From positions 13,325 through 77,324 of IMG/VR virus record IMGVR_UViG_3300033175_000001: a stretch of DNA of 64,000 nucleotides, one strand, 5' to 3'. The notes under the pieces are model-generated. The model did not search any database. It was not told the DNA's origin and saw nothing but the letters and a program-made list of their open reading frames with translations. Below, one piece after another: positions 1,067-62,246 of the stretch (within the stretch, counting starts at the first letter, position 1; every line of letters begins with the position of its first letter). Source of the stretch: a virus (taxonomy: Duplodnaviria; Caudoviricetes). Position numbers and translations under genes: made by a program.

Positions 1067-1070
1067 TATC

Positions 1071-4345: not shown

Positions 4346-4546
4346 CTAAAATACCTTCGCCCTTCCAGCTTTTAAATCCTCCATTATCTGCCTTGCCTCC
4401 TTCTCCGTATTACCGTCTGGTTCAAATGCCTCTTCGGAAATAATGAACTGATCCAGAATAAACTGAGGAATATTATTCCTGTCTTCTACAATAATGGCAT
4501 TCCTTCTTCCTGTAGTTTTATGGGTTACATAAATAGTGTCCATCAA
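4346..4546 (-). CDS. small hypothetical protein, homologous to the N-terminus of 2563..3096
   Basis: IYVTHKTTGRRNAIIVEDRNNIPQFILDQF aligns by eye with VHALNKQTGEYSNIFIEDSSNIPSFILNNF. Confidence 0.7.
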   Translation of the reverse strand: MMDTIYVTHKTTGRRNAIIVEDRNNIPQFILDQFIISEEAFEPDGNTEKEARQIMEDLKAGRAKVF

Positions 4547-37897: not shown

Positions 37898-38401
37898 TTA
37901 CAACCTCGCTACAGGATCAAGGTATTCCATTAAACCAAGCTTTTCTAAAATCCACGCTTCTTTTTTGCCCAGACCAAGAGGATTACCCTCTAAATCAAAT
38001 AAATCATATTGATTCAAAGTTAAATCCAAACTCCTTGCCTTATTCCTGCAGATAATATTAAACTCCTTAGAACCTGTCAAAAACAATAGCCCCGCTCCCC
38101 ATTCTTTTGAACTAAAAAATCTTATATTCACAGGAAAACCGTCCAAATCAAAATCAAGATTTCTTGAACCCATTGCCCATGGATTCCCTCCAAATTTACC
38201 AACATGCCAATGCCACCAACAAACATCCTGGTCAAAAGCTACGATATCAATATCCCCGACAGTTTCTGCTCCTCTTCTAAAACTGCCAGCTATTTCAAAC
38301 TTCAGCCCTAAAGATTTAGGCTCTTCCAAAAAGGAAGAGACCCTTTTTAGGGCCTCCTCTCTACCAAATCTTATATTATCATTTTTTATCGATTTCTTCA
38401 T
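37898..38401 (-). CDS. minimal DNA polymerase X (palm + C-terminal domain only)
   Basis: IAGSFRRGAETVGDIDIV, GAGLLFLTGSKEFN, LTLNQYDLF, E..I...LGLMEYLDP..R. Confidence 0.88.
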   Translation of the reverse strand: MKKSIKNDNIRFGREEALKRVSSFLEEPKSLGLKFEIAGSFRRGAETVGDIDIVAFDQDVCWWHWHVGKFGGNPWAMGSRNLDFDLDGFPVNIRFFSSKEWGAGLLFLTGSKEFNIICRNKARSLDLTLNQYDLFDLEGNPLGLGKKEAWILEKLGLMEYLDPVARL

Positions 38402-39096: not shown

Positions 39097-40206
39097 TCAC
39101 ATATTATTGTATTCAGTTCGCAACTCTGCTCTTCGTGATACCGCATCTGCCCTCGCTGCTTTAGCGTCCCTCAAACGTGATTGCAGGTTCTGGATTTCAA
39201 GTCTATCTTCTAAAGGCAACGCACCCTGCCGACCGGCCCTGATATTTAAAATCTGTTCGGTAAGCGTTCGTACCTTCTCGTCCATAGTGGCTACAATAGC
39301 CTGCTGCTCACGCCACATATCATACACTTCCCTCTTACGCTGTTCCATTTCAGGATCAATTTCACTCGGGTCTCGCCGTGCAGCTTGGTAAGGAATCGGC
39401 ACAACCTTACATCTACAATACGGGTGAGAATTTGGAACTTCGCCTACTCGAAAAATACCTTCTCTATGAACCAAAGGCAACTCTCGATATGGAACAAAGA
39501 TAGAAGTAGCAAACATTCTGCAAATCGGGCAGGTCTTCTTATCTCCGACAGCCATCCACTTAACGTACCCTATGCCTGCTTCCTCTGCCACATACTCTGT
39601 AATTTTACGCTGCGACCTTCCTACTTCTGAAGCAATAAGTCTGTCAGTTGACCTGGATAAAGAAAATGAATTATACCTCCCTCCATCTTCATAGTACCCT
39701 CTTCGAGTACCTTTAAGAGTATCTAAAATTTCTTTCGCTTTCTTCTTTTGGGTAGCCTCATCGCCTACTTTACGAATACGGTTAATCCCTCTCGTCAAAT
39801 CTCTCTCAAATCTATTTACTATCCTGGTAAGCCTTTGCTTCCTGGTCATGCCGAGAAAACTTTCCCGATTATACTTAGAAACAAATTTATCTTCAAGAGC
39901 CCTCGCCTGCGCCGGTGTAAATTTAATTCCTCGTTTAGCCAGCATTTCAGCATGATCCTTTATGGTCTTTTTAACCATGGATCGAATATTATCATCAAGG
40001 ACAGAATTTATATTATCCCTATAAGAACGAACAGCCGAAGTAACTACCTCCCTGATCTTCTTATTCTTGGAGGCAGTAGTTCGGCTATTTGCAATCGCTA
40101 CAATACTCTGGACATCTGGAAAATTCCGAATTTCCTGTTTCCTTTTATTCAGAGCCCTTATAACAATCTGATAATTAAAGTCCCTCTGCTTTTTGGTTAT
40201 TGCCAT
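39097..40206 (-). CDS. minor head morphogenesis protein (SPP1 gp7 / Mu gpF-like)
   Basis: YVKWMAVGDKKTCPIC and PNSHPYCRCKVVP. Confidence 0.9.
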   Translation of the reverse strand: MAITKKQRDFNYQIVIRALNKRKQEIRNFPDVQSIVAIANSRTTASKNKKIREVVTSAVRSYRDNINSVLDDNIRSMVKKTIKDHAEMLAKRGIKFTPAQARALEDKFVSKYNRESFLGMTRKQRLTRIVNRFERDLTRGINRIRKVGDEATQKKKAKEILDTLKGTRRGYYEDGGRYNSFSLSRSTDRLIASEVGRSQRKITEYVAEEAGIGYVKWMAVGDKKTCPICRMFATSIFVPYRELPLVHREGIFRVGEVPNSHPYCRCKVVPIPYQAARRDPSEIDPEMEQRKREVYDMWREQQAIVATMDEKVRTLTEQILNIRAGRQGALPLEDRLEIQNLQSRLRDAKAARADAVSRRAELRTEYNNM

Positions 40207-40209: not shown

Positions 40210-42096
40210 TTACTTCCCCGGAGGGCTAAAAGTCCTCTTCTTCGCTATAGGCTGAGTCTGCTTTGTAGGAACTCCCTGAACCAATCCGGCCTCACCCTGC
40301 TCTGAAGCCTTATATGCCCGATACTCTTCCATCTCAAGATCAACCGGCTTCTCTGCAACCCTCTCAGACTCCTCATCAGCCGGCAATTCTTCCGGTAACT
40401 CCTCTCCCATTAAAACGCCAGAACCTTCTTCTGCAGCAAAACCTTCTCCGACCATTTCCCTCATGTTATCAGCAGTAAACTCTCCCATGGACTCCACTTC
40501 AAACATTTTATCTTCTTCAATCTCTTTGAATTTAGCGTCTATATCCTTAATACCTCGACGACGCATTGCTCCTTTTTTCGACTCAATGCCCATCTCCATC
40601 TCCATCTGAAGTTCCTGAAGTTCCTGCATTGAATCCCTCGGAAGATATTCAGCCCACTTTATTTCAACTTTATAGTAAGGATTAAATGAAAGCTCCTGAT
40701 ACAATTTATAGACCATATCATCTTCCTGCGCCATTAAATCATCTTCCTGAGTATCAGTACTCTCCGCAACCTCCACCTCTTGAGTAATCCTTATTTCTTC
40801 GAGCTGATCCCGCACATTAACATACCTGTCAACTCTATCCTGAAGATTAAGATTGAGATTAGTGTCAAGCATCTTCAAAGCATATTCGTATATCTGAACA
40901 AACCCGGCCTCATAACTTAAACGTTTCCTCCTGGTTAATCCTATCAATGGTAAATACTGTACCTGCAATGCTATACCAGTAGCATTTGAAATATTCTGAA
41001 AAAGCCCACTCGATGCTTCCGGTATACCACTCGTCAGATAAGCAAAATCCTGAAGCTGTTCCATCAGATCCTTTACAGCCGGAAAATTCTGCTGCCCGCC
41101 AAGCTGATCCACCTTTGCGTCCTTTGGAAACCCACTCCAAATCTTATTCGGTCCCCTGCGAAGATTCCCTATTTTTGCTCCGAAAATCAATGTTATAGGA
41201 CTACCATGATATTTCACAGAATCAAGATATTGCGAAGCCGCCTCATTAAGATTCAGGTTAAGATCAACAATGTCTACCAGATCACTTCTCCCATAAGTTT
41301 CCAGAGGAACTACCTGATTCCTAAAATGCACGACCGGAATAAAGCCCAAATCATTATCCGCCTCTTCTATAAGCTCCTGTTCAATATTATCAGCCGATAT
41401 AGACTCTACCGTTTTGAACTTAAAAAGCTGCTTAAATAGTTTCTCCGGCTTCCACGAAGAATCTTCATTCTCATCATCTTTCAGATACTCAACAAAAAGC
41501 TCTCGCTTTTCCTCCGTCCATACCTCTTTAAAAAGAACGTCCCTGACCGTACCATCCGGCCATGTGTACTCTCCTTCCCACACTATAACTGCTTGCTGAA
41601 GAACAGTCCTGTTCCTTTCAGACTTTCTGTACCGCACAAAGGTCTTTTCTGAATCCAATAACTGAAACCGCGGACTCTGTATATCCTCATCCCAGATAAC
41701 TTTCACAAAAGAATCCCCACATACACTTGCGTTCGTAACTACTTCAAGAGCAAATAATTCAATACCTGATTTCTTGTTGATATAAGCTATCACCGGAGCC
41801 ATCAGCTTTGAATACGCATCTGGAGCATAGACAGTAAAAGGTTTGCCGACAAGAAAATCAGCACTCCTATCTACAAAAGCCTTTGCCAGATTTATCTTTA
41901 CATCCTTTGGATTCTTCATCCTCGGATCAATATGAATCATATCATTCCGATAAGACTCCCAAAATTTTCTATAAAGAGTTATTCTATAAAACTCCCGGAT
42001 AAAATCTGGGTCATCTTTGAACAACTCCAAATCAACATCCATCTTATTCAAATAAAGACTTACCTTATCATATAAATCCAAATAAAAATTTCCCAT
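40210..42096 (-). CDS. portal protein (SPP1-like)
   Basis: NLAKAFVDRSADFLVGKP, FIPVVHFRN...YGRSDL, ATGIALQVQY. Confidence 0.93.
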   Translation of the reverse strand: MGNFYLDLYDKVSLYLNKMDVDLELFKDDPDFIREFYRITLYRKFWESYRNDMIHIDPRMKNPKDVKINLAKAFVDRSADFLVGKPFTVYAPDAYSKLMAPVIAYINKKSGIELFALEVVTNASVCGDSFVKVIWDEDIQSPRFQLLDSEKTFVRYRKSERNRTVLQQAVIVWEGEYTWPDGTVRDVLFKEVWTEEKRELFVEYLKDDENEDSSWKPEKLFKQLFKFKTVESISADNIEQELIEEADNDLGFIPVVHFRNQVVPLETYGRSDLVDIVDLNLNLNEAASQYLDSVKYHGSPITLIFGAKIGNLRRGPNKIWSGFPKDAKVDQLGGQQNFPAVKDLMEQLQDFAYLTSGIPEASSGLFQNISNATGIALQVQYLPLIGLTRRKRLSYEAGFVQIYEYALKMLDTNLNLNLQDRVDRYVNVRDQLEEIRITQEVEVAESTDTQEDDLMAQEDDMVYKLYQELSFNPYYKVEIKWAEYLPRDSMQELQELQMEMEMGIESKKGAMRRRGIKDIDAKFKEIEEDKMFEVESMGEFTADNMREMVGEGFAAEEGSGVLMGEELPEELPADEESERVAEKPVDLEMEEYRAYKASEQGEAGLVQGVPTKQTQPIAKKRTFSPPGK

Positions 42097-42107: not shown

Positions 42108-42602
42108 TTAAACAAAATACACTCCGTAAATGAATCCCTTATGAATACATTTACTTGCAAAATCCATAATCTCACTATGCTCCCAAAAAGAAACACGTTC
42201 CGTAAACACGTTCCCGAACTGCGGCCCCTGAGATATAGGTTTCAAAGGTAAACACATAAGCAAACGTCCCTTCAAAGAATTTATTATCCGCATTGCTTCG
42301 TCTTTCTTCATTTTATCAAATACATTAAATCCTAAATACAAATCATAAGGCTCACACCAAAAATCAAATTTTCTTGCGTCACCCAACATTATATTACGAT
42401 AAACCGGAAGACCAAAAATGGCTCTCTTATAAGCCTTCTCTATGCTACGCTCATCTATATCCACCGCATCAATAACAACACTGGGCAAAAGCTCTTTTAT
42501 GAACTCGCCCAGTGCTCCCCAACCACAACCTATATCCAAGATAATCCGGGGCTGATCACCCTTTAAAAAATCAGCAGTAGACTTTAAATACTTCCTATCC
42601 AT
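42108..42602 (-). CDS. class I SAM-dependent methyltransferase
   Basis: ILDIGCGWG, DAVDID, GDAR; C-terminal H/ERVSFW. Confidence 0.88.
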   Translation of the reverse strand: MDRKYLKSTADFLKGDQPRIILDIGCGWGALGEFIKELLPSVVIDAVDIDERSIEKAYKRAIFGLPVYRNIMLGDARKFDFWCEPYDLYLGFNVFDKMKKDEAMRIINSLKGRLLMCLPLKPISQGPQFGNVFTERVSFWEHSEIMDFASKCIHKGFIYGVYFV

Positions 42603-43365
42603 GCGCTTCAGCTTCTAATCGACAAATTGCCAGAAGCCTTTCAGCGGCACTTGGACCAAGAACCTTTGAAACAATTTTAGCTTCATCTCCGTAAAAAGAG
42701 AAGTTGAACCTGAAAATATTCATTGCCTCTCTTTTTAACGTAGCCATCTCTTCCTGAGACTTTGCCTTCTTTATAAGCTCTTCCTGTTTCCTGACCGCAT
42801 CGGACGCTGCCTCGCTACCCACAAAAACCTGTGACCGATCAACAGAATTTCCATTTGAATCTTTCAGGATTTCAAACTGCTCATTGAACTCCTCATTAGC
42901 AAGAAGCTGAGGATCATTTATTTCATTCAATAACTTGCTCATTTCCACATCATCGAGCATTAAAGAATCCTGCGCTTCATCAAGAGCTCCCATCTTAACA
43001 AGATCACGAAGAACTGCAGCAGCCAGCTCTGCATCTTCTTCTCCGCGCGCCCTGTTATGCCGGAGAGTAGCAATCTTCATCTGCTCATCCGTCATCTCAA
43101 CAAGGACACACGGAATTTCAGTGAACCCTACCGACTGAGCAGCTCGCCATCTATGCTCACCATCAACTATAACCATATCCTGCTTTCTTACCAGAGCTGG
43201 AGTAGTAAATCCATCCTCTTCAATAGACCTGCACAAAAGCTCAAACTCATGTTCAGACTGCCTATTCGGATTATAAGCATTCGGCTTAATATCGTTAACA
43301 TTGATGTATACAACATCAAGATTCTCTAAAACCACATTGTTCTTTGCTATTTCTTTCTTAGCCAT
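42595..43365 (-). CDS. ParB/Srx N-terminal domain protein (IbrB-like)
   Basis: PNAYNPN, SIEEDGFTTP, IVDGEHRWRA, TLRHNRARG. Confidence 0.9.
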   Translation of the reverse strand: MAKKEIAKNNVVLENLDVVYINVNDIKPNAYNPNRQSEHEFELLCRSIEEDGFTTPALVRKQDMVIVDGEHRWRAAQSVGFTEIPCVLVEMTDEQMKIATLRHNRARGEEDAELAAAVLRDLVKMGALDEAQDSLMLDDVEMSKLLNEINDPQLLANEEFNEQFEILKDSNGNSVDRSQVFVGSEAASDAVRKQEELIKKAKSQEEMATLKREAMNIFRFNFSFYGDEAKIVSKVLGPSAAERLLAICRLEAEAHG

Positions 43366-44263
43366 TTATTACTTCCTCCTTCTGAGATTCCTCTGTAGCA
43401 AAATGGGCTTCATACTTCTTACAAAGCTCAACCAACTTAACTGCAGGTTGAAGGCCCAGGACTTCCTTAACAATTTTTGCCTCATCCCCTGTATAAGAAA
43501 CTGCTATACGGTAGATATCCTTTTTTATCTCAAAAAGAATTTTCGATTTTTCCGACTCGTTATCAACCAATGCCGCCTTCTGCTCGGCCAGTTTTACCGC
43601 CTCAACGACCTTCTGTGTAGAAGCCTCCATCCTCTGTGGATCAACCTGCTTTGCCTCTACTGATACTGTAGACTCTTTGCTCTTTGAGGAAATCCACGAT
43701 TCGCTGTAATCCTCGCCTGCCAGACCCTCTGGAACAGGTATATCATCCAGAAGAATTCTCATCTCTTCCTCTTCCATCATCAATGAATCCTGCGCCCAAT
43801 CCAGAGCGCCAAGTTCACGCAAGTCACGAAGCACTTCGGCTGAAAGAGCGATATCCTCGGAACCTCTTGCTCGGTTATGCCTCAGAGTAGATATCCGCAT
43901 CTGCTCCATAGTCATATCTACAAAAACAACAGGCACCTTATCGTAACCGAGATGCCTTGCCGCACGCCAACGGTGTTCTCCGTCTACGATAACCCGCTCA
44001 TTCCTGATTGCAACGATAGGCTGAGTAAATCCATCCTCAGTCATCGATTTAACCAGAAGCTCAAAGTCCCTCGGGTCCTGTCGATTAGGGTTATATGAAT
44101 TTGGTTTTAATTCAGCCACATCCACATAAACCACTTCCAATCTTTCGAGGGCTTTCGCCGTCTTCTCAACTGCTCTTCGTCCACGCTCCCTTATCTCCGG
44201 CTGAGGTCGCTGCCCGTCCGGGATAGGATTCCGTGTGCTTTGTTTTTCTACATCTACTGCCAT
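43358..44263 (-). CDS. ParB/Srx N-terminal domain protein (IbrB-like paralogue)
   Basis: PNSYNPN, SMTEDGFTQP, IVDGEHRWRA, STLRHNRARG. Confidence 0.9.
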   Translation of the reverse strand: MAVDVEKQSTRNPIPDGQRPQPEIRERGRRAVEKTAKALERLEVVYVDVAELKPNSYNPNRQDPRDFELLVKSMTEDGFTQPIVAIRNERVIVDGEHRWRAARHLGYDKVPVVFVDMTMEQMRISTLRHNRARGSEDIALSAEVLRDLRELGALDWAQDSLMMEEEEMRILLDDIPVPEGLAGEDYSESWISSKSKESTVSVEAKQVDPQRMEASTQKVVEAVKLAEQKAALVDNESEKSKILFEIKKDIYRIAVSYTGDEAKIVKEVLGLQPAVKLVELCKKYEAHFATEESQKEEVING

Positions 44264-44276
44264 ATTTCCGGCCTCC

Positions 44277-44966
44277 TCATAAATTATTTATAGTACAGTG
44301 CGCCCCGTATTTAGACCGCCTATAAATTGTTGCTCTTGAACCAAACAGAGAATTTATCCTCTCTTTGTAATCCTGATATGAAGGCATTTCATCAGATAAA
44401 AAATGCAATTCAAAAGTAGAGAAACGAGATTTCTTTAATATATCTACTCCCTCATCTGAGAAAAATAAACACTCCTCTCCTCCCTCGGCATCACATTTTA
44501 AAACAGCATTTCCGCCTTCAAATATATTTATGTATTTAGCGTGAAAATCTTTTATTCCCATTAAAGAAGCCAGTACATTCGATTCCTTACGAGCAAACGA
44601 CTCTTTACCAACTGTAGAATATAACGAAGACCCGTTACTATGAACATTGAACGTACCAGGCTCAAAACCAATTCCAATATTATATGATGAAACACCAGTT
44701 AAAAATTTTGTATTCTCCAAAAACATCTGATGAGTTGATTTTACAGGTTCAAAAGCAAACACCTTTGCGCCTGGATATAGCTTCTTAAATAACCTTGTAA
44801 ATACCCCTATATTTGCTCCTACATCAAAACAAACTGTATTATCGAACTCTCTGCCTTTAATCCTGTAAGAATCGTCATCAAATAATTCTTCGATGGTCAA
44901 CTTCAAATCCATTTTATTATCAGTAATAAATTTACCCATTGAATTATGCTCATAAATATCTATCAC
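44277..44966 (-). CDS. FkbM-family methyltransferase
   Basis: FDVGANIGVF, VFAFEP, LKCDAEGGE. Confidence 0.9.
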   Translation of the reverse strand: MIDIYEHNSMGKFITDNKMDLKLTIEELFDDDSYRIKGREFDNTVCFDVGANIGVFTRLFKKLYPGAKVFAFEPVKSTHQMFLENTKFLTGVSSYNIGIGFEPGTFNVHSNGSSLYSTVGKESFARKESNVLASLMGIKDFHAKYINIFEGGNAVLKCDAEGGEECLFFSDEGVDILKKSRFSTFELHFLSDEMPSYQDYKERINSLFGSRATIYRRSKYGAHCTINNL

Positions 44967-44970
44967 GCTA

Positions 44971-45696
44971 TCACCTCAATGCATATCTAAATAATTGACC
45001 GAGAACACCCGGATCATCCAAAAGTTGCTCTTTTGAAAATCCTGCATACTTGGTGTCCCTTAGATAGCTATTGAATATAGCAGCAGCGTAAGTTTCAGAA
45101 TTTACCCACGGAGAAATATCTCCTTTCCCTGAAAAAATAACGCTCATATCCGCTCCCGTAAAAGGCTGCATCTGCTTATAACTAAAATGTCGATACTTCC
45201 TGCCTTTTAACGCTTTTCGAGAAGCATGAAAGTTAAAGGCAAACTTATGCATCTGCTTACCTTCCCTTTCACGATTCAACGCTTCAGCTATATTCTTTAG
45301 CCAACTTGTAATTATGTGTCCTCTGGCACGACTACCAAAAATACCGTTAGCTATCTTACCCTGCTCCCAACCATAGCCAAAAAATTCAAAATCATCGAAC
45401 ACGTCGAATAAAGGCTGCACACTACGGAAAACAACAGTATCTATATCCATCCATATACCGCCGTTGTAAAAAAGAAGTACAACTCGAATAAAATCACTCA
45501 CCGTCGCTATATCCGGCAAACTCCATACATCGTCCCGAATTTCCACAGGAATAAACTGATTCAAATTACTTCTATTTACGATATGCACTGGATGGCCTGC
45601 GGAATGCTTCTTAATTGTATCAAGGCAAAGATCAATATACTCAGGAGTACCGTAATCTTTTAAAGGTTCCCAAAATAGCCATATTGCGTCATTCAT
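44971..45696 (-). CDS. DXD glycosyltransferase (capsular polysaccharide synthesis / GT32-like)
   Basis: IWLFW, IDLCLDTIKKH, SDFIRVVLLFYNGGIWMDID. Confidence 0.88.
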   Translation of the reverse strand: MNDAIWLFWEPLKDYGTPEYIDLCLDTIKKHSAGHPVHIVNRSNLNQFIPVEIRDDVWSLPDIATVSDFIRVVLLFYNGGIWMDIDTVVFRSVQPLFDVFDDFEFFGYGWEQGKIANGIFGSRARGHIITSWLKNIAEALNREREGKQMHKFAFNFHASRKALKGRKYRHFSYKQMQPFTGADMSVIFSGKGDISPWVNSETYAAAIFNSYLRDTKYAGFSKEQLLDDPGVLGQLFRYALR

Positions 45697-46320
45697 TTAG
45701 TCTGCCCCCATTGAAAACGTCCGGCTATTTCGAGGTCTGCCAAAACAATTCTTCGCAGTACCGAGCGTTGAATCCATATCAATATTATGATCAACCAAAT
45801 TCGGAACACATATTGCATAATCCTGCTTCACTTCTTTCAGATACTTACCTAAAAGAGAATCGTGCCCCTCCTTCTCGTCATAATAAGTATCCTCATAGTC
45901 GCTCGCCCATGAAAGCCACTTACGGGCAAAATCATACCTAAATGCTGCCGCCTGATCCCACAGGTAGGTAGCACCTTTTTCGATCTGCCACCTTCTATCA
46001 TCTTCAGGAAAATCCATAGGGCGGAAATACTGAAACAATTTGAAACCCAATAACTCCGCCTCTTCTATACGCTTTAAAGCCTTTGAATAAAAATCATTAC
46101 AAAGTATTATATCGTCCTGAAACATTACGATCCATCTCGCGCCGGATTCAAAACCCTGCCTGAGAGCTTTAACATGGCTCCATACAGTTCCCTTCATATA
46201 AGGATCGTAAAATTCATTTAGACCAGGAACAGCTTCAAAAACATTCCTGGCATCAAAGCCCTGCTCTTTCCTTTTCTGGCAAGTAACGACCACCCAGTAA
46301 ACATCATGTTCCGATATCAT
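45697..46320 (-). CDS. GT-A-fold glycosyltransferase (GT25-like)
   Basis: SHVKAL, MFQDDIIL, HDSLLG, VPNLVDH. Confidence 0.7.
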   Translation of the reverse strand: MISEHDVYWVVVTCQKRKEQGFDARNVFEAVPGLNEFYDPYMKGTVWSHVKALRQGFESGARWIVMFQDDIILCNDFYSKALKRIEEAELLGFKLFQYFRPMDFPEDDRRWQIEKGATYLWDQAAAFRYDFARKWLSWASDYEDTYYDEKEGHDSLLGKYLKEVKQDYAICVPNLVDHNIDMDSTLGTAKNCFGRPRNSRTFSMGAD

Positions 46321-47555
46321 ACTGCAGCCTCCGTCATCTTTGCCCTGTTCTCAGGAGTATACCACCAATAAGTCCCGGGAAAAGCTACAAGTATAGGCTT
46401 CTCGGCCTTAAAAACACCACCAGTAGGTTTAAAAGTACTGGGTTCAACATAATCCAGCCCCAGGTAAGAATTAAACGGATCGCCGTCCCATGCTTTATGA
46501 GTTAAATCTTTCCAAGACCCAAGTAAACCACAAGGCATACAACTGGCAACGTCCGGAAAAGGAGTAGTCGAATGCTTTGCATGCCTTCTGAGAACATTCG
46601 CCCTGACACGCTTCGCCCTATCAGCTACCCATAAAGGTGCCTCCTCTATACACGTCCTCTGAAAACATTCTTCCCAGGTCTCATTTAAACGCCGCTGCGG
46701 AGTACAAGTCTGAAGACCAAATTTAGCTGCAGTTCTTATCCCCGGAATCCTCTCAGCAACACGGTCAAACCAATGAGGCCATGCTCGCATTGCGATAGAT
46801 AATTGCTGGATAGCAGCACCATTAAGAGTAACAGGTGCAATACGCATGCCATGAGCAGGCACACCCATTTTAAACATGACATCATACGCTTCATTATAAT
46901 CCCAACCGTTATCTCGAATTGACTTCCACACATCCCCATCACGCCAATCATATATCGGCCAGGTATTACGAACTTCTCTTGTGCGCTTATCATCCGAATT
47001 ATATTTTGATGTAATAAAGTCTCCCTGCATCGATGCAAGACTCATTGCCCGTTTTGGAGACTCCTGAACCCTGATACCGATAACATCAAACATATCTACG
47101 CCATCCCGTGTGGGTAAATCCGGTAATTGATCCAAGGTACAAAGGTCATATAAATCTTTCGTCCGAGTTATCTGTTCTGCGTAAGGAGGCGGTTTCCTCA
47201 CCCACTTATCCTCCGGGATATCTGGGTCAAATGCCCACCAATAAGGCTGTTCCCTATTGAACGGATTGGTGTTCGGATTATTCATATAACACCAGTGGAA
47301 ATCAACTTCGCTGGTTCTGTTTGCAACCCGTTCAGCGTATTCATAAGTCCCTGGGTACATAATCTCTTCATCATTCATTATTGTAGTAACCGGAAGCCTA
47401 CCCATTTTCTTTGCAACCATGACAGCAAGCTCCAGACACACCGCTGAATCCTTGCCTCCAGAAAATGATACAACTACATCTCCCTGTTCAAAACAATACT
47501 GAAGTCTTGTCAGAGCCCTCTCGAAAACATTCTGCCCTAAATATAATCTTGCCAT
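46317..47555 (-). CDS. PAPS-reductase-family PP-loop protein (IbrA-like, DUF3440-type)
   Basis: VSFSGGKDS, DEE..Y..T, IGIRVQESPKR, PIYDWRDGDVW, YDVMFKMG.....MRI. Confidence 0.88.
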   Translation of the reverse strand: MARLYLGQNVFERALTRLQYCFEQGDVVVSFSGGKDSAVCLELAVMVAKKMGRLPVTTIMNDEEIMYPGTYEYAERVANRTSEVDFHWCYMNNPNTNPFNREQPYWWAFDPDIPEDKWVRKPPPYAEQITRTKDLYDLCTLDQLPDLPTRDGVDMFDVIGIRVQESPKRAMSLASMQGDFITSKYNSDDKRTREVRNTWPIYDWRDGDVWKSIRDNGWDYNEAYDVMFKMGVPAHGMRIAPVTLNGAAIQQLSIAMRAWPHWFDRVAERIPGIRTAAKFGLQTCTPQRRLNETWEECFQRTCIEEAPLWVADRAKRVRANVLRRHAKHSTTPFPDVASCMPCGLLGSWKDLTHKAWDGDPFNSYLGLDYVEPSTFKPTGGVFKAEKPILVAFPGTYWWYTPENRAKMTEAAV

Positions 47556-47557
47556 AT

Positions 47558-48253
47558 CTACCTCAGCTTTGTTATAGAATAACCTTTCTTATCAAACATC
47601 TTTGAAATGTTAGCTATCTTTCTTTTATTAAATTCAAGCCCAAAACATTGGACGCCGCTGTCAATAAACGGAGGCCAAAAAGACGCCTCTCCTACAAACA
47701 TATCCAACAGCTTCTTTGGACGGATATTTCGATTTAAAAAATTCGGAATATATAATCCCTTCTCACTATGCTTGCCATTAGGATCATCATCCCATTCAGG
47801 GGCCTCTACCCCATCTACAAAAGTTCCTACCCACAAGCAGTATTCAATACCGCTTCCATAAGTAGGAAAAAACATATTGAACTGTTTCGCCCCATATTTA
47901 TCGAGCCTGGGCTTTAATTGCTCCATACCTTTTATACCCATCTCAATAGCAACATACTTGGAAGAATAATTCTTGCAGGCGAAAGCAATACCCTCTAAAA
48001 GATTCTCAAACCCATTCTTCGGAAGCTTATCCATACCTACCCATTCCCGGAACTGATTCGCTATCCTTGTATCCCATGGCGGGTCAGTATAAATAAGATC
48101 TGCTCGTTCTTCCCCCATTAAAACTTCAAGCGCCTTTGGACTAAACGGAGCACAAATATACCTATGCTTCAGTTCTCCTGCTTCGTACATCTCACCCGGC
48201 TGAATAGGAAACTTCTCCCAGGCATCTCCGTACATTTGATCTGCTTCCATCAC
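47558..48253 (-). CDS. atypical amino-methyltransferase-fold protein (DPPW)
   Basis: ADLIYTDPPW and a degenerate SAM motif LLDMFVGEAS, FGLEFN. Confidence 0.7.
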   Translation of the reverse strand: MMEADQMYGDAWEKFPIQPGEMYEAGELKHRYICAPFSPKALEVLMGEERADLIYTDPPWDTRIANQFREWVGMDKLPKNGFENLLEGIAFACKNYSSKYVAIEMGIKGMEQLKPRLDKYGAKQFNMFFPTYGSGIEYCLWVGTFVDGVEAPEWDDDPNGKHSEKGLYIPNFLNRNIRPKKLLDMFVGEASFWPPFIDSGVQCFGLEFNKRKIANISKMFDKKGYSITKLR

Positions 48254-48780
48254 TTAACCTCCGAAACTGGAAAAATATAATCTACAAAACAAATAGCTAC
48301 CAGCACCGTACCGTGCTGCTTCTTTGGAATAATAGTTTCGACTATAAGCTCTTCATCTTTAAGAAAGAACTCATCTGAATAGCCGTTAAAATAAATCTCC
48401 TGCAGAGCTTCCCTCAATTCAAGGGACGCCTCTTCTTTTAACTTTGGACCGTTATATTCACAAACGATCCCGCCATACTTCTCTTCAGTCTCTTTATTAT
48501 AAAGCCAACCATAAATAATGCCGGCTGTACCTACTTCCCCTTTACCACAAGTACACACACCCATAATTGCTTCCATAACCGAACCATGTGTCAACTTTTT
48601 AGGTTTGGGAATTTCCTTAGCCTCACCCGGAAGTATTGAGGAATACTGCATAATATTACACATCTCAATATCAGCATCCTTTAAAGCCATGTGATAAGAC
48701 CCGGCGTGTATAGTTATATCACTCTCCCCTTTACCGGTCGTTACAAAAAAATTTCGGGGAACTCTTTGCCCTACTATCAT
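48250..48780 (-). CDS. pdaD: pyruvoyl-dependent arginine decarboxylase
   Basis: VPRNFFVTTGKGES, SYHMALKDADIEMCNIMQYSSILP (Ser-Ser self-cleavage site), GIVCEY, VLVAICF. Confidence 0.92.
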   Translation of the reverse strand: MIVGQRVPRNFFVTTGKGESDITIHAGSYHMALKDADIEMCNIMQYSSILPGEAKEIPKPKKLTHGSVMEAIMGVCTCGKGEVGTAGIIYGWLYNKETEEKYGGIVCEYNGPKLKEEASLELREALQEIYFNGYSDEFFLKDEELIVETIIPKKQHGTVLVAICFVDYIFPVSEVK

Positions 48781-49502
48781 TAACTGACCCTCCTCGCTAA
48801 AAATACTATTATACCATCATAACCCCTTGAATAATCGCAATCCATGGAGAAAGACTTAACCATTTTAAAATCACTATCGAGAAAACCAATAATTTCCATC
48901 ATATCAACTGGAAACGCTGAGTACTTAACTTTTCCAACTTTATAAAACTCGGCGTTCCTCAAAGCTGCCATTACTATGTACTTATCCGCTGCGGACTTAA
49001 TATTGGAAAAAAGCTGAGAATAATCTACATAATTATCCGTTATACTTTCGATACAAAAACACGACGATACCAAATCCGCCTTTGTAGGAATTCCGCCCAA
49101 TACATTTAGCTGCTTAAATTCAATATCTAAATCAAGCATCCGCCACTCGATAAATTCTTTTGTTGTACCCTCGATATCAGCTACATAATTTAAAAAATCA
49201 TTCCAATCAAATCGTGAAGGTGAACACTTGAACCACTTAGCCACCTCCATCAGATTACTCTTACTAAAATCTGAAAATAACACCCTTCCGGCCTTATTAC
49301 TTGCACTCATGAGTTGATAAATAGTAGGGCCTCCGCCAACTTCAAAAATACTTAAGCCATCATCAATATCTTTATAAATCTCGTGGAATGATTCTAAAAG
49401 AAATTTATTCTCCTCGTCGCAACTCGAATAATATTCATTCAAATATCTTCTTGAAGAAAAATCCGTAAAATCAACACGCTTATCCTCTAAAACAATCATC
49501 AC
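48780..49502 (-). CDS. NNMT/PNMT/TEMT-family small-molecule N-methyltransferase
   Basis: EVGGGPTIYQLMSA, SDFSKSNL.EV.KW...FDW, DLVSSCFCIES, FYKVG..KYSAFP closely follow the NNMT/PNMT pattern. Confidence 0.9.
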   Translation of the reverse strand: MMIVLEDKRVDFTDFSSRRYLNEYYSSCDEENKFLLESFHEIYKDIDDGLSIFEVGGGPTIYQLMSASNKAGRVLFSDFSKSNLMEVAKWFKCSPSRFDWNDFLNYVADIEGTTKEFIEWRMLDLDIEFKQLNVLGGIPTKADLVSSCFCIESITDNYVDYSQLFSNIKSAADKYIVMAALRNAEFYKVGKVKYSAFPVDMMEIIGFLDSDFKMVKSFSMDCDYSRGYDGIIVFLARRVS

Positions 49503-51508
49503 TCCGTCCTATGAAAAGTGGCTTTATTCACCACAAGTTTTCCTTCTCTCGCTGCACGTCGAACATTATCAAAACCACGAATTTCAGAAATATCCATCCT
49601 GTCAATAATATCCTCTACATAATTTATAGAATCATCATTTGGATCAGCATTCAATGAAAAATAATTGGGAGATTCAATCGCAGAACCCATATTAACGGCT
49701 TCTTCAGCAGCATTAAGAGCGAGAAAGAAACTTTGTACGTAGTCATCCTTCGCTCCCTTATAAGTACCATGACGAATAATCATTTTATCATTTTTCCATA
49801 CTTTCTCCGCATCAAGCAACTGCACCATAAATTTATTATACTTGCGCGTCTTTTTCGCTGAAGCATGGGAAGGAATGCGAATATTTTCATGGTTCAAATT
49901 CTTATAAAATAACTGCGCCAACTTATGCTGATTCTGCAAAGAGAAATAAACAGGCTGAACATGCACATCCCTATATGCTAACCTTCTTGAAACCATCTCA
50001 TGTATCGGGTCGCCGACACCGGTTGAGTCTATGCTTAAAACCTGCAAGGTATCGTACCGCTTACACACCCTCACAATATCATCTACCTGAGATTCCCAGT
50101 TATCTCCTTCCCATTCAAACCATGCGGATACCTGCTTATAATACATATCAGCGTCCACAAAAACAGTTGCAGCCTCCTCGCTTTCCTCATCGCCCATAAG
50201 TTCTATATACCTTCTCGGCGAAGTATCCCGACGAACAAGTTTTATGATAGTAAGAACAGTACTGTCATACTTTTTACCAAGGTCAAGGCCGGCAACATAC
50301 ATAAACCTATTATCGGGAGAACTTTCCAACTTCAAAGAAGTTGCCTTCATCTTCCGTTCAAAGTCAGCCGACGTAATTGCCATACCTTTCTGAAGTAGCC
50401 ACTCCAGCTTATACGACATCCTAAAATAATCGGAATCCTCACCGTACCTTGATTTTTCTTTCTGTATCCAACGTGCATACCGTTCATTATATTTACTGAC
50501 GACGGTATAATCAAACTCAAAATGATTTTTAACCTTATTCTTGGATAACTGAGATATTCGTTTATTTCGAGTAATTGCTTCGAGGAACTCACACTGCCTC
50601 ATGTGGGGAGTGCCAAGTTTTATGATAGTTGCAGAAGTAGCTGCCCCCATCGGGTGGATACTTTTAAGTACCTTTTCATCTGAAACATCCTGTGCTTCAT
50701 CAATAATGATTATATGATAAGTCTTTGATTCAACCTTTGCCTGCGGAGCAGCAGAATGGATACGCACATAAGAACCATTAGACATCCACAAGGAATCTAC
50801 TGCTATATCCACTTCTGGATCACTAAGAAAATTAGCAGCCTCTTGACTGCCAACCCTTAATCTGAACCTTTCGGAAATAGTCTTTGCCTGGGGCTCTGTT
50901 GGAGCAAACACCCCGACGAAAACGCCCCTGTCAAATTGAGATAACTGCGGAAAATACTGACTGAGGATAGGTAATATCGCCATGAGTGTAGCCACCACAT
51001 CTGTAACACACTCAGACTTACCTGACTGGCGGGACCACAGCGCAGTTATTTCTTCACCGTCATTTAATAAAACACTCTGAAACACCCGAGCTGCGAATAT
51101 TTTCTGATACGGGAATAACTTGATATTACAAAGCTGTTCAAGAGTAATCAGGAGCTTTTCAACGATCTCATCAGTATTGACTTCGCCCCAATCAATTATC
51201 TTGCCATAAGAACTCTCAAATTGACCTAAATCCTGAGAAAGTTCAACTTCATATTTTTCGAGTATCCCCTGAACGTACTCATGAACATCATAACCTTTTT
51301 CTTTTGTTTTAACTGGCGGAGTAAATTCACCTTCTCCATACTCCGTCTTCATTTTTCGTTTCTTCTTCTTTGATGTCCCCTCATACTGGCCGTCTAATTC
51401 GGCAAACTTTTCCTTTATTCGCTTCGACTGTTTCTTTAGATCGTTCTTTTTATTAAATGTGGCCTTCTTAACTGGTACATTTACCTTATCATCGTTCAAT
51501 TCAATCAT
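49499..51508 (-). CDS. terL: terminase large subunit
   Basis: WSRQSGKS Walker A, IIIIDEAQ, AGLDLGK, DSTGVGDP, DDYVQS. Confidence 0.93.
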   Translation of the reverse strand: MIELNDDKVNVPVKKATFNKKNDLKKQSKRIKEKFAELDGQYEGTSKKKKRKMKTEYGEGEFTPPVKTKEKGYDVHEYVQGILEKYEVELSQDLGQFESSYGKIIDWGEVNTDEIVEKLLITLEQLCNIKLFPYQKIFAARVFQSVLLNDGEEITALWSRQSGKSECVTDVVATLMAILPILSQYFPQLSQFDRGVFVGVFAPTEPQAKTISERFRLRVGSQEAANFLSDPEVDIAVDSLWMSNGSYVRIHSAAPQAKVESKTYHIIIIDEAQDVSDEKVLKSIHPMGAATSATIIKLGTPHMRQCEFLEAITRNKRISQLSKNKVKNHFEFDYTVVSKYNERYARWIQKEKSRYGEDSDYFRMSYKLEWLLQKGMAITSADFERKMKATSLKLESSPDNRFMYVAGLDLGKKYDSTVLTIIKLVRRDTSPRRYIELMGDEESEEAATVFVDADMYYKQVSAWFEWEGDNWESQVDDIVRVCKRYDTLQVLSIDSTGVGDPIHEMVSRRLAYRDVHVQPVYFSLQNQHKLAQLFYKNLNHENIRIPSHASAKKTRKYNKFMVQLLDAEKVWKNDKMIIRHGTYKGAKDDYVQSFFLALNAAEEAVNMGSAIESPNYFSLNADPNDDSINYVEDIIDRMDISEIRGFDNVRRAAREGKLVVNKATFHRTE

Positions 51509-53260: not shown

Positions 53261-53442
53261 TTTGTAGTATCAATCTGCCCGGATTCTACCATCCGGATTG
53301 CTTCCTCAAATAACATTGCATTCCATCTTGAAATATCAGAATACCTGCCTTTGCTTTCTACATTATGTTTTTCCTTTAAATGACGAGCCCATTTGCGATA
53401 AAAAAATTCATTCACTAATACAGCCACTCGAAACTTGCTCAT
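53251..53442 (-). CDS. hypothetical protein
   Basis: ATG at 53442 with GAGGAG RBS. Confidence 0.5.
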   Translation of the reverse strand: MSKFRVAVLVNEFFYRKWARHLKEKHNVESKGRYSDISRWNAMLFEEAIRMVESGQIDTTKWG

Positions 53443-53863
53443 ACTTGCTCCTCTCACCAGAAGCACCTGCTTTAGCCAACATATCAGCGTAATCATTCCA
53501 CTTATTGCCTGAATGCCCTTTAACATGCTTCCAGTCTATAGTTAATTTTTTCATTTTACCTTTCATGAATTTTGCATACGCCTGAGTAAACTCATTACCG
53601 GCCGACCAAAATTCTAAAGGCCAATTATAGCATCCAACATAATCATAAAGAATGCAGATTTCTGTGAACCCGCAGGAATCCGCCCATGAAACAGCTTCCA
53701 ATACTGCTTTCATCTCTCCTGCGACATTACGCTGTGCTAAAAGCTCTTCCGGCCCGGATAACATGCCGCAACTTTCAAAGATAATTTGCTCATCTTTAAC
53801 TGCCACAAAACCCCAACCGATATTGCCGTTCTTTACAGCCCCATCTGTATATAATTCTACCAT
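53408..53863 (-). CDS. rnhA: ribonuclease H (type I)
   Basis: YTDGA, NVAGEMKA, YDYVG, WKHVKGHSGNKWNDYADMLAK. Confidence 0.92.
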   Translation of the reverse strand: MVELYTDGAVKNGNIGWGFVAVKDEQIIFESCGMLSGPEELLAQRNVAGEMKAVLEAVSWADSCGFTEICILYDYVGCYNWPLEFWSAGNEFTQAYAKFMKGKMKKLTIDWKHVKGHSGNKWNDYADMLAKAGASGERSKYEQVSSGCISE

Positions 53864-54057: not shown

Positions 54058-54480
54058 TTAAATATACCCCTGTTCTTTCATTGAAAGATAACCCTGGGAA
54101 GAAACTATAACATGGTCAATTAAAGAAACTCCTAAAAGCTTGCCTGCCTCCTTTAATCGCTGTGTAGCCTCTACATCTTCTCTTGAAGACTGTAAAACTC
54201 CGGATGGATGGTTATGAACGGCAATTATGCCGGCTCCTCCAACCATTATAGCAGCACGGAAGACTTCTCTTGGATGAATGAGAGATTCTGATATTGTTCC
54301 TCTTGATACTTCCTGCCAGTGAACAACAATATTTTTATTATTCACTACTAAAATACAGAACCTCTCCTCCACTGCATCATGCAGAAAAGAAAAGAATTCC
54401 CAGACCGATTCCGGTGAAGAAATATTTTTAGCCCTTTTTGCTTTCCCTACGTACCTTACTTCCGCTTCCCTTACCCACAT
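54058..54480 (-). CDS. RadC-like JAB/MPN domain protein
   Basis: EERF, GTISESLIHPREVF, HNHPSG..SRED, LIDHVIV. Confidence 0.93.
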   Translation of the reverse strand: MWVREAEVRYVGKAKRAKNISSPESVWEFFSFLHDAVEERFCILVVNNKNIVVHWQEVSRGTISESLIHPREVFRAAIMVGGAGIIAVHNHPSGVLQSSREDVEATQRLKEAGKLLGVSLIDHVIVSSQGYLSMKEQGYI

Positions 54481-57070: not shown

Positions 57071-58009
57071 TCAGAGTGTACAATCTTCAGGGACACGATC
57101 ATCCCTAAATCTTAAAAACATAGAATGCCTCATTGCTCCAGATGGAAAAACCTCAAAACCTCCGATCTCAACAACTTTACCAATATACTTTTCTGGATTA
57201 TCCGTAAACTCCTTACGCCAATCAAAACCAAAAGCGCTGGTCTGTGTCACAAACTCCAACTTACCATTTATAAAAAGCCCGCATTTTATCGATGCTACAT
57301 TCATTCCTTTTGCCAAAAATGTAGGAGCATCAGTTTCAACAAAACCAAGGCACACATAATCCTTAGTCAGATATTTTTTTATTTTAAACATGAACGGAGA
57401 TTCCCCGTGGAGCTTGTATAGCGCATCTGCAAACTTCAAAACCACGCCCTCACCTTTACGATTATAAATCTCCATGAACATATTCCATGCTCGATCTCTA
57501 TTCTCCTCAAAAGACCCATCAAGAATAACAGACTGAACTAAATCAATCTGCGGATGCTCAACACCAAAATACTTTGATTTTGAATAAATTTCTCTCAGGA
57601 TATCAAACCTCTGTTCGGTAGTTTTATGTAAAAGCCAATCTCCATCCCACTGAATCACGTCAAAAGCAATAAATCTGCGATATCCATGTTCTTCAGCCCA
57701 TCGAGTTTCAGCCTCAGTACCATACCCAACTTCCCCAATAAGTATAGAATTATTAGGCATAAATTCATCAAATACTGCAAGCATTTCCTGAAGAGCACCA
57801 TACTTTTTCCAGCCATTATCCCAATAACATCCAGTATCATCCTTTACGACAATCCCAAACCAGCCGTCCAATTTTTCCTGGCACAGCATCCGATTACCCC
57901 AATGCTCGAACTTTTCAAAACCGCCTCTCACAAAATCAAGCCCAGTCATCCCCGGAACATAGTCACCTTCAGGGAAATACCCTCTGATTTTCATATCGTA
58001 CTTTAACAT
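57071..58009 (-). CDS. lig: ATP-dependent DNA ligase
   Basis: QEKLDG (KxDG), IGEV, AFDVI, EGVVLK, KIKK, FLRFRDDR. Confidence 0.93.
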   Translation of the reverse strand: MLKYDMKIRGYFPEGDYVPGMTGLDFVRGGFEKFEHWGNRMLCQEKLDGWFGIVVKDDTGCYWDNGWKKYGALQEMLAVFDEFMPNNSILIGEVGYGTEAETRWAEEHGYRRFIAFDVIQWDGDWLLHKTTEQRFDILREIYSKSKYFGVEHPQIDLVQSVILDGSFEENRDRAWNMFMEIYNRKGEGVVLKFADALYKLHGESPFMFKIKKYLTKDYVCLGFVETDAPTFLAKGMNVASIKCGLFINGKLEFVTQTSAFGFDWRKEFTDNPEKYIGKVVEIGGFEVFPSGAMRHSMFLRFRDDRVPEDCTL

Positions 58010-59675: not shown

Positions 59676-59933
59676 TTAAAATTTTTTTGCCGGACGATAC
59701 ACGCCGTCTTCTCCACGCTCTATTGGACGAAGCCTCATACCTATAGCATGTTCACATTGATCTTTATTATATGGATCAACTCCTGAAACACGCGCCCAAC
59801 AAGAATCCACCTTGCCAGCAATAAAAGGCGGTTCGCACTCGATAGTAATATCCGGTACAAACACACAAAACCTTTTATTGCCGACAATGGAAGAATCCCA
59901 GAATAAGTACCTGTCACCACTCTTTGTACTCAT
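59676..59933 (-). CDS. hypothetical protein
   Basis: Likely ATG at 59933. Confidence 0.5.
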   Translation of the reverse strand: MSTKSGDRYLFWDSSIVGNKRFCVFVPDITIECEPPFIAGKVDSCWARVSGVDPYNKDQCEHAIGMRLRPIERGEDGVYRPAKKF

Positions 59934-61861: not shown

Positions 61862-62246
61862 TTTCTCCCTCCTTCAATGCTTCAATAATCTCATCTGATG
61901 AAGCATTTATTATCCACCTGACGAATTCAAATTCTGACTCCGGGATCATATACATCCTTTCATCCTGAATTTCAATTTCAAAGGCATAAAACTCTCGGGG
62001 AAGAATTTCTCGTTTAATCTTCTCAATCCATGACTTCTCGAAATAAAGCCCATCTTTATCCGTCCGTTTTAATTCAACTCGTAAACTGTCAAATACGCAA
62101 TCTCCCTTATCAAAAAACAACGCTCCACTCGCAAAAGTAGTCCTGCCTCCAAATCTCTTTGCACAGGCCGCCTCTTGCTTCAGACTTTTATCCTTCGGCG
62201 TCTGATTATTGAGTTTATCAACCCACTTTGGAAGCGTCATCTTCAT
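61848..62246 (-). CDS. PD-(D/E)XK nuclease / archaeal-type Holliday junction resolvase
   Basis: QE...AKRFGGRTTFASGA..DKGD...RVELKRT. Confidence 0.8.
   Translation of the reverse strand: MKMTLPKWVDKLNNQTPKDKSLKQEAACAKRFGGRTTFASGALFFDKGDCVFDSLRVELKRTDKDGLYFEKSWIEKIKREILPREFYAFEIEIQDERMYMIPESEFEFVRWIINASSDEIIEALKEGENGDL

Follow-up and report, generated by a model that had tools for sequence, protein, structure and literature searches.

Ten consecutive genes between the large terminase gene (terL) and the portal gene of an uncultured sludge phage were found to divide into two units: a core built around an IbrA-type PP-loop enzyme and ParB-fold proteins (g3, g4, g5, g8, g9, and g10) and an amine arm consisting of an N-methyltransferase (g1) and a pyruvoyl-dependent arginine decarboxylase (g2). 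We tentatively read the cassette as an IbrA/IbrB-type module that modifies DNA late, in connection with packaging, and that has recruited a two-gene amine-making unit. The DNA analyzed here, referred to as the window, is a stretch of 64,000 nucleotides corresponding to bases 13325-77324 of a linear IMG/VR virus record of 77,324 bp (IMGVR_UViG_3300033175_000001), the completeness of which is estimated at ~80%. Listing of the open reading frames (ORFs) confirmed the layout described in an earlier note on this DNA, with ten contiguous minus-strand genes spanning positions 42108-49502 between terL and portal. The genes are numbered here from the terL side, and the junctions, those with terL and portal included, range from 8-nt overlaps up to 13-nt gaps (Table 1). 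The gene families named in the earlier note were also correct, as judged from Pfam, PHROG, and NCBIfam matches, a family profile for g3, and structural matches for g5. What did not survive is the proposal of a single ten-gene hypermodification pathway: the core was found in 53 other viral contigs without amine genes, and the pair of decarboxylase and methyltransferase (NNMT family) was found in cells without IbrA.

How is the core arranged in other phages? An alignment of IbrA retrieved 53 further IMG/VR contigs, with IbrA identities of 42-51%, and the neighbors of these 53 loci were profiled with purpose-built hidden Markov models and clustering. A common order was observed across the 53 contigs: a class I methyltransferase, IbrA, a variable slot, and ParB, with a terminase gene usually next. 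ParB lay downstream of IbrA in 49 of 53 loci, and a class I methyltransferase lay immediately upstream of IbrA in 35 to 46 of them. Where at least 4 kb of downstream sequence was available (43 loci), terL was located 1-7 kb downstream in 32 cases, and the terminase and portal types near the core were unrelated (Terminase_6N, TerL_ATPase, Terminase_4, Portal_Mu, and Phage_portal). Between IbrA and ParB, the variable slot was occupied by a methyltransferase of the g3 family in 23 of 53 loci, by weak relatives of g5 (GT5-like ORFs) in 12 loci, by 2-oxoglutarate (2OG)-Fe(II) oxygenases in L031 (10887-11777) and L058 (11092-11847), and by a C5 cytosine DNA methylase in L051 (1086-1922). Elsewhere it held class I methyltransferases, and one canonical N6_N4 methylase was also seen in the cassettes. 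Among GenBank phages, 224 records match g4. Because three kinds of DNA methylase recur in the cassette, adjacent to diverse packaging genes, a DNA target and late timing are favored. On this basis DNA is probably the target of the core and is favored over virion protein. At 12 loci, the end of IbrA is overlapped by a conserved ORF (~128 aa, no Pfam match) that precedes the g3-family gene (e.g., L019, 6040-6423); it may encode a small adaptor protein or be an alternative-frame artifact.

The PP-loop enzyme of the window, g4, matches PF01507 PAPS_reduct (50.6 bits) and phrog_2302 (E 3e-55). Its SFSGGKDS motif is invariant in the family alignment, and three nearly invariant cysteines (C302, C339, and C342) lie in the C-terminal domain. 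Over residues 8-280, g4 is 31% identical to the protein annotated as IbrA in Streptococcus phage CHPC1148. A PDB sequence search with the IbrA profile returned no match. The AlphaFold2 (AF2) model of g4 (predicted local distance difference test [pLDDT] score of 81) placed eukaryotic FAD synthase/FMN adenylyltransferase (FMNAT), CysH, and CysD as the nearest folds, with TtuA and TilS ranked lower (TilS at rank 37 or below), and g4 scores far under the equivalog cut-offs of DndC, CysH, and CysD. Enzymes of the FMNAT/CysH/CysD clade transfer AMP to, or handle AMP esters of, phosphate and sulfate oxyanions, and DndC is a DNA-acting member of this clade. By analogy, we infer that adenylylation of an oxygen on DNA, or attached to it, would be a better model for g4 than base activation of the TilS type. 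The TilS-like base adenylation suggested previously is weakened by this ranking of folds. We also considered whether g4 is a true PAPS reductase tied to an APS-kinase cassette behind the tail-fiber gene at the left end of the window (1-5151); this candidate was rejected, as g4 falls far below the CysH cut-offs and its partners are DNA enzymes, and nothing in favor of such a tie was found.

The two ParB-fold proteins of the window, g8 and g9, match ParB_N at 45.6 and 55.6 bits and are paralogues with 44-48% identity, both with a DGEHRWRAA motif. ParBs from the other loci resemble g8 slightly more closely, 49 of 52 scoring higher against g8 than against g9. The protein annotated as IbrB in CHPC1148 is 35% identical to g8, the C-terminal peptide included. 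Modeling of g4 together with g8 gave a complex score of 0.72, compared with 0.00 for the best of three controls. Of 80 solved complexes, 58 attained this mark, as did 2 of 110 mismatched pairs, a calibration that is only approximate here as custom alignments were used. The g4-g8 model runs share at least 70% of their contacts, with a partner pLDDT of at least 64. The predicted interface places g8 residues 175-194 (ending in LAGEDYSESW) against g4 residues 1-13, 173-178, and 203-237. The same docking peptide terminates the 170-residue IbrB of CHPC1148, and both g8 175-194 and g4 203-237 lie within the stretches that align with CHPC1148 IbrB and IbrA. These models support the binding of g4 to g8. 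The assignment of these genes to the IbrA/IbrB type thus holds, from phrog_2302, the CHPC1148 alignments, gene adjacency, and the predicted complex.

The decarboxylase of the amine arm, g2, matches PF01862 with 98.9 bits (cut-off, 22.7) over profile positions 1-161 of 161, and falls below the cut-offs of the NCBIfam equivalogs, which were built on other clades. When aligned with the pyruvoyl-dependent arginine decarboxylase (PvlArgDC, also PdaD) of M. jannaschii (structures 1n2m and 2qqd), QYSSILP of g2 lies opposite RISSIMP, with the Ser-Ser self-cleavage site kept. Also kept are the catalytic Asn (mutated in the N47A structure) and the Glu of MEYEG, whereas conservation at the position of the guanidinium-binding Asp35 is not clear from the pairwise alignment. 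DPANN archaea, Bacteroidota, and Spirochaetota supply over 1000 cellular homologues with ~60% identity to g2. One archaeal homologue adjoins an arginase-family gene, which we infer to encode agmatinase, and a gene for deoxyhypusine synthase. Given the catalytic residues, the identity to cellular enzymes, and this archaeal neighborhood, g2 is likely an arginine decarboxylase, and the earlier assignment of g2 as a PdaD making agmatine from arginine is probably right.

The methyltransferase of the arm, g1, belongs to the NNMT_PNMT_TEMT family (PF01234; 106 bits versus a cut-off of 25, E 2e-30) and matches human NNMT at 88 bits (E 7e-24); the SAM (S-adenosylmethionine)-binding motif E-GGGPTIYQ is invariant among its relatives. 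It passes the NCBIfam cut-off for GntF (63 bits versus 60), with the match limited to residues 8-112. The substrate of GntF is a guanidino-amine derived from arginine, which it methylates on the primary amine. Relatives of g1 were identified in 24 GTDB genomes and at 58 non-phage metagenome loci. The cellular relatives are flanked by ornithine, lysine, or arginine decarboxylases of four unrelated folds; neighbors at the 24 loci include OKR_DC_1, Orn_Arg_deC_N, and AdoMet_dc, each twice. PvlArgDC lies directly upstream of an NNMT-like gene in L083, L086, and L012 and at 13 of the 58 metagenome loci. Since non-homologous decarboxylases alternate beside the same methyltransferase family, the g1 family appears to methylate the decarboxylation product, and the pair most likely makes an N-methylated agmatine. 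The functional link between decarboxylase and NNMT-like enzyme is thereby supported from cellular genomes. At one cellular locus (L012, 2814-4800, the same as L105), PvlArgDC and the NNMT-like gene form a trio with a guanidinoacetate-N-methyltransferase-like gene, which suggests that agmatine is methylated at its guanidino group as well as at its amine; this third gene was not found at the other decarboxylase-NNMT loci.

Among viruses, the arm is very rare and was found only in the lineage of the window. The NNMT motif was found in IMG/VR in this lineage only, in at least four sequence variants, and a single-protein scan of IMG/VR with NNMT returned nothing beyond L001. A tblastn search of 50,697 GenBank phage records gave no match to g1 or g2. 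In the NNMT tree, the copies of the window and L001 form one group that leans weakly toward a Spirochaetota clade, and the copy of L006 sits elsewhere on a long branch. From these sequences the phage NNMTs may have a single origin, and we do not claim independent acquisitions.

Orthologues of the cassette are carried by at least four other contig lineages; the relatives comprise L001/L013/L100/L101, L006/L149, L099, and a relative at ~94% nucleotide identity that is represented by contigs from anaerobic-digester RNA libraries. The co-occurrence of PdaD, NNMT, and IbrA/IbrB near terL that had been anticipated for related phages was observed in the L001, L006, and L099 lineages and in the ~94% relative. 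In every variant, the NNMT-PdaD pair directly abuts the g3-family gene (MT3) and IbrA, with overlapping stops and starts. Scanning IMG/VR with the PvlArgDC profile identified three further contigs, L096, L097, and L098. One of these, L098, is an unrelated phage contig (67% GC) in which PvlArgDC is followed by a gene for a 469-aa protein, IbrA, two ParBs, a helix-turn-helix protein, and terL. Its terminase differs from that of the window, and its IbrA, of the classical type, carries a weak DUF3440 match with an E of 8e-5 (22.9 bits, just under the cut-off of 25). The PvlArgDC of L098 is 57% identical to other homologues and 48% identical to that of the window, which ranks 113 of 122. Because the L098 copy is closer to other homologues than to g2, PvlArgDC joined IbrA/ParB cassettes at least twice. 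The 469-aa protein between PvlArgDC and IbrA (L098, 8680-10089) is a candidate for linking the amine to the IbrA machine. It has no Pfam match and no PDB match; the Atlas leads only to glycosyltransferase-like viral clusters (0.89), and hhalign against g5 gave a probability of 2%. A single-sequence AF2 model of this protein reached a pLDDT of 39.5 and was not usable.

How might the two units work together? In the mechanism that we favor, g2 would self-cleave to the pyruvoyl enzyme and convert arginine to agmatine, and g1 would then N-methylate the amine with SAM, a pair of steps that we consider quite probable. As the complex model predicts for g8, g4 would associate with g8/g9, which would bring it to DNA. 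There, by analogy with FMN adenylyltransferase, CysD, and DndC, g4 would use ATP to adenylylate an oxygen on the DNA or attached to it, and g3, g5, and g10 would finish the mark or add to it ahead of packaging by the terminase. The proteins g6 and g7 would be swappable cargo that varies the sugar and methyl decoration. For the amine, one possible and speculative fate is consumption by this machine, either by nucleophilic attack that resolves the adenylylated intermediate or in a later addition, leaving a cationic group on virion DNA. The L098 lineage makes a covalent (methyl)agmatine on DNA somewhat more plausible, in that it also puts PvlArgDC beside IbrA, ParB, ParB, and terminase, and we hold this link between arm and DNA only as a working possibility. 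The site of attachment may be a base or the phosphate backbone, in the latter case with a phosphoramidate linkage. The fully specified version, in which virion DNA carries (N-methyl)agmatine added after replication by the adenylylating IbrA-ParB machine and then further methylated or glycosylated, is unlikely to be right in every part.

Several observations weigh against a DNA-modification module that uses the amine. Neither PvlArgDC nor NNMT was found at the 53 other IbrA loci, and the sole amine-related enzyme among 150 flanking ORFs examined was one lysine-2,3-aminomutase-like protein. Because all 53 of these cassettes lack the amine arm, agmatine is not a general co-substrate of this IbrA subfamily. 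The decarboxylase-NNMT pair is an autonomous module in cells without IbrA, and none of the cassette profiles matched within 8 kb of PvlArgDC in L096 and L097. The L098 contig is one extra case, and it too adjoins a terminase gene, a position that a need for polycations at packaging would explain equally well. With regard to the core, DUF3440 was not detected in g4 at E ≤ 0.01, and the C-terminal third of g4 (~130 residues) fails to align with the IbrA of CHPC1148. The only published role of IbrA/IbrB is a regulatory one, as worded in database names. If the analogy with GntF extends to full methylation of the primary amine, the product may be a poor nucleophile. The case for a DNA mark is drawn from gene families, catalytic motifs, neighborhoods, and the predicted IbrA-ParB interface, and other pathway genes may lie in the missing ~20% of the record.

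One potential explanation for this pattern is that the core acts on DNA and the arm is separate, releasing free N-methylated agmatine late in infection and merely sharing the operon. Such an amine would be a non-catabolizable polycation for charge neutralization at packaging, or it would disturb the polyamine metabolism of the host. The self-contained pair in many cellular genomes and the missing arm in the other IbrA cassettes are both consistent with this alternative. Polyamine enzymes have been described in phages, among them pyruvoyl arginine decarboxylases with a different fold (PMC9992855), and PvlArgDC lies in a packaging operon in both phage lineages, that of the window and that of L098. 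However, PvlArgDC was recruited independently right beside IbrA/ParB in these two unrelated phages, and in the lineage of the window the pair is coupled to MT3-IbrA by overlapping stops and starts and exchanged with it as one block. PvlArgDC can also sit elsewhere in viral contigs, as in L096 and L097, although these are perhaps not phages of this kind. We regard a free amine as somewhat less likely but as a serious rival, and we retain the coupled module as the preferred reading.

Comparison with L006 revealed how the cassette is inherited. The terL C-terminus is 100% identical between the window and L006 at the protein level, portal is 95% identical, and g9 and g10 are 92-93% identical. Between them, a divergent block spans from directly after terL through g8, with identities of 32% for NNMT, 32% for the GT-A glycosyltransferase, 58% for IbrA, 71% for MT3, 71% for g8, and 78% for PdaD; the order of NNMT and PdaD is reversed in L006. 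Nucleotide identity drops from 95% to 66-74%, and the break lies exactly at the terL stop codon. Because a divergent set with the same functions sits on a near-identical backbone, we conclude that the block was exchanged by recombination with its functions kept. The amine arm travels within this exchanged block between terL and g8. Across variants, the constant set consists of NNMT, PdaD, MT3, IbrA, the GT-A glycosyltransferase, two ParBs, and the small class I methyltransferase, with g1 as the fastest-evolving gene (32-45% identity among phage variants). The remaining genes are variable: g6 is present only in the window and absent from L001 and L006, and g7 corresponds to a gene of 32% identity in L001, whereas paralogues of g5 and g10 take its place in L006. 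Their inclusion as conserved parts of a pathway is therefore not upheld. In the ~94% relative, 9 of the 10 differences listed within IbrA fall at third codon positions, a bias that points to purifying selection. The cassette genes are real and under selection.

Could the interval between terL and portal instead be a recombination hot spot that collects unrelated morons (DNA methylase, IbrAB, glycan, and polyamine genes), co-inherited by linkage only? The variable content of the middle of the cassette and the sharp break in identity to L006 at the end of terL would fit such a site. However, the same functional set is kept at 32-78% identity on a near-identical backbone, the order of MT3/GT-A/ParB/IbrA genes recurs in dozens of unrelated phages, and the genes are translationally coupled. 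We consider chance linkage improbable.

The region is also represented in other sequence data. Contigs from two anaerobic-digester metatranscriptome libraries, which can contain DNA, span the whole region at ~93-94% identity, and the runs holding the stretch all come from sludge, wastewater, or digesters. In run X5, one low-depth DNA contig apparently joins 43546 to 49263 via 21 unrelated letters; its flanks are short and no joint is listed, and it was not counted as a deletion variant. The G+C contents of L001, L006, and the window are 32%, 38%, and 42%, respectively, despite 69-95% protein identity in terL and portal.

The other core enzymes bear on what the core may modify. Searched alone, g3 matched no Pfam family at E ≤ 0.01, and its membership rests on the family profile; a single-protein scan of IMG/VR with g3 found nothing beyond L001. 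The family comprises 165 representatives of ~225 residues, in which DPPW is almost invariant and DPxxGxG...E occurs toward the C terminus. Motif IV precedes motif I, and motif II is acidic. Conserved positions are D184, G188, G205, and E207; at the GxG position of the family, g3 carries VGEA. Of the 40 aligned members, 19 match PF01555 N6_N4_Mtase, and the family profile finds CcrM, DpnA, and RsrI. Because of these matches, g3 is assigned as a compact beta-class DNA amino-methyltransferase. No Pfam match was obtained for g5, and a word-based homologue search returned only g5 itself; its Atlas model matches viral GT-A/GT25-like clusters (template modeling [TM] score, 0.75-0.83). It also matches phrog_854 (E 4e-9), has orthologues in L001 and L006, and is kept in all cassette variants. 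The small methyltransferase g10 may correspond to the class I methyltransferase that most other cassettes carry just upstream of IbrA; hhalign against that cluster gave a probability of 95%, compared with 91% for an NNMT control, i.e., likeness at the level of the fold only.

The least probable alternative is the assembly of methylated glycans by the glycosyltransferases and methyltransferases, either on proteins of the capsid or tail or on a polymer of the host surface, with IbrA/ParB unrelated or regulatory: it would account for two glycosyltransferase genes, FkbM, and class I methyltransferases within a structural operon, it has parallels in the virion glycosylation by phage-encoded glycosyltransferases discussed for mycobacteriophages, and it suits the database name of IbrA/IbrB, "co-activators of prophage gene expression," but in 12 unrelated loci GT5-like genes occupy the IbrA-ParB slot next to DNA methylases, g3 belongs to the DNA-type amino-methyltransferases, and the most glycan-like genes, g6 and g7, are the non-conserved ones. 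Glycosylation of virion proteins, offered in the earlier note as one of two targets, is thus the less likely branch, with GT-A genes sharing the IbrA-ParB slot with DNA methylases in unrelated phages.

The nearest named relatives of the cassette are the IbrA/IbrB pairs of the E. coli ECOR-9 island, K-12 (YbdN/YbdM), Streptococcus, Flavobacterium, and actinophages (PHROGs 2302 and 2159). As in these pairs, the g4 and g8 genes are neighboring, and the SGGKDS PP-loop motif and the predicted docking peptide are conserved. Unlike them, the cassette has two ParB paralogues, a DNA methylase, a GT-A glycosyltransferase, methyltransferases, and the amine arm, and it lies between terL and portal rather than in an early region. 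The duplicated ParB, the terL-portal position, and the arm of decarboxylase and N-methyltransferase set the cassette apart from other IbrA/IbrB pairs.

In DndB/DndC (and SspD) of DNA phosphorothioation, a ParB-superfamily protein is the partner of a DNA-acting, PAPS-reductase-like PP-loop ATP pyrophosphatase. Conserved cysteines are present in the PP-loop enzyme (PMC11662687). The pairing of a ParB fold with a PP-loop enzyme and the conserved cysteines are shared by g4/g8. However, g4 scores 28.7 bits against TIGR03183, far from the DndC cut-off of 290.4, and the cassette partners are methyl- and glycosyltransferases rather than sulfur enzymes; family searches revealed no cysteine desulfurase, DndD, or DndE among the cassette genes. 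A PP-loop enzyme paired with ParB also differs from TilS and TiaS, which have a tRNA substrate and no ParB partner, and TilS is only a lower-ranked fold neighbor of g4. On tRNA, TilS/TiaS (lysidine and agmatidine formation) activate a base with ATP before attack by an amine, and agmatine is the donor for TiaS, which is not a PP-loop enzyme.

Amines are placed on DNA by other phages. PhiW-14 (putrescinyl-T), SP10, ViI, and M6 encode amine or polyamine modifications of DNA, partly post-replicative, which neutralize charge and block restriction; in the thymidine pathways, 5-hydroxymethyldeoxyuridine (5-hmdU) produced by a thymidylate-synthase homologue is elaborated by a DNA kinase and pyrophosphorylase-type transferases (PMC5889632, PMC8989533). 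The 77-kb record (~80% complete) gave no match to Thymidylat_synt (PF00303) or to the TGT family (PF01702) of the 7-deazaguanine enzymes DpdA/TGT, and it bears no resemblance to the thymidine or 7-deazaguanine systems. To our knowledge, thymidine hypermodification pathways have no PP-loop or ParB component. As for the arm, g1 resembles GntF and the methyltransferases of the cellular decarboxylase-NNMT pairs, in that it passes the GntF cut-off and its relatives adjoin arginine or ornithine decarboxylases; it differs from GntF in its context, a phage packaging operon with no other gnt genes. The phage pyruvoyl arginine decarboxylases reported by Li et al. (2023) to make agmatine are only of the AdoMetDC/SpeD fold (PMC9992855), whereas g2 has the unrelated PvlArgDC fold and is paired with an N-methyltransferase.

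IbrA and IbrB are annotated in hundreds of phages and prophages, and our literature searches on IbrA/IbrB, on PAPS reductase with ParB, and on agmatine with hypermodified DNA found no functional study and no paper assigning them a biochemical function. The lineage described here is informative in that its cassette probably brings its own supply of an arginine-derived methylated amine, a second unrelated phage (L098) pairs the same decarboxylase family with IbrA/ParB, and the core adjoins terminase genes across many phage types. Newly found in this analysis are the separation of a widespread core from an autonomous amine module, the mosaic block exchange, the predicted IbrA-ParB interface, and the independent second pairing of PvlArgDC with IbrA/ParB. 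A hypothesis testable by mass spectrometry (an agmatine-derived adduct or counter-ion) and a minimal gene set follow. An amine attached to DNA would amount to a new cationic modification, with consequences for restriction and CRISPR evasion and for the physics of packaging, and it would give the first chemistry for IbrA/IbrB. With a free amine, the cassette would hold the first pathway known in a phage for making a methylated analogue of a polyamine and would point to an undescribed N-methylagmatine metabolism in DPANN, CPR (candidate phyla radiation), and other cells.

Coordinates of the cassette and its flanks are collected in Table 1. The whole window has every gene on the minus strand and a uniform GC skew, with no tRNA genes. 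The terL product shares 36% identity with the large terminase annotated in Bacillus phage BCD7 and 69% with its L001 orthologue, and it has a weak Terminase_6N match. A blastn search of GenBank phages with the cassette gave no match.

Table 1. Genes of the cassette and its two flanking genes (positions in the window)
Gene	Product	Positions	Strand	Match or remark
terL	Large terminase	49499..51508	-	Flank upstream of g1; stop overlaps g1 start by 4 nt
g1	NNMT/PNMT/TEMT-family, GntF-like small-molecule N-methyltransferase	48780..49502	-	PF01234
g2	Pyruvoyl-dependent arginine decarboxylase (PvlArgDC/PdaD)	48250..48780	-	PF01862
g3	Small beta-class N6-adenine/N4-cytosine DNA methyltransferase, DPPW motif	47558..48253	-	Family profile
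g4	IbrA-type PP-loop/PAPS-reductase-like enzyme, SFSGGKDS motif, Cys-rich C-terminal domain	46317..47555	-	PAPS_reduct, phrog_2302
g5	GT-A fold glycosyltransferase, QDD motif	45697..46320	-	Structural matches, phrog_854
g6	GT32-like glycosyltransferase, DXD	44971..45696	-	Caps_synth / Gly_transf_sug
g7	FkbM-family methyltransferase	44277..44966	-	FkbM
g8	IbrB-type ParB/Srx-fold protein, DGEHRWRAA motif	43358..44263	-	ParB_N
g9	Second IbrB-type ParB paralogue	42595..43365	-	ParB_N
g10	Small class I SAM methyltransferase	42108..42602	-	Methyltransf_25
portal	Portal, downstream flank	40210..42096	-	95%-identical L006 orthologue carries PF05133 SPP1_portal

Beyond the cassette, a MuF-like gene follows portal (39097-40206). 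Upstream of terL lie genes for an RNase H (53408-53863), a RadC-like JAB protein (54058-54480), an ATP-dependent DNA ligase domain protein (57071-58009), a Cas4/PD-(D/E)XK nuclease (59914-60834), and a bacterial-type RecA (62218-63375). Directly downstream of the head-morphogenesis genes, a 167-aa ORF (37898-38401) encodes a small Pol-beta-like nucleotidyltransferase, its matches being limited to the palm and thumb domains of that polymerase (PF14792 and PF14791).

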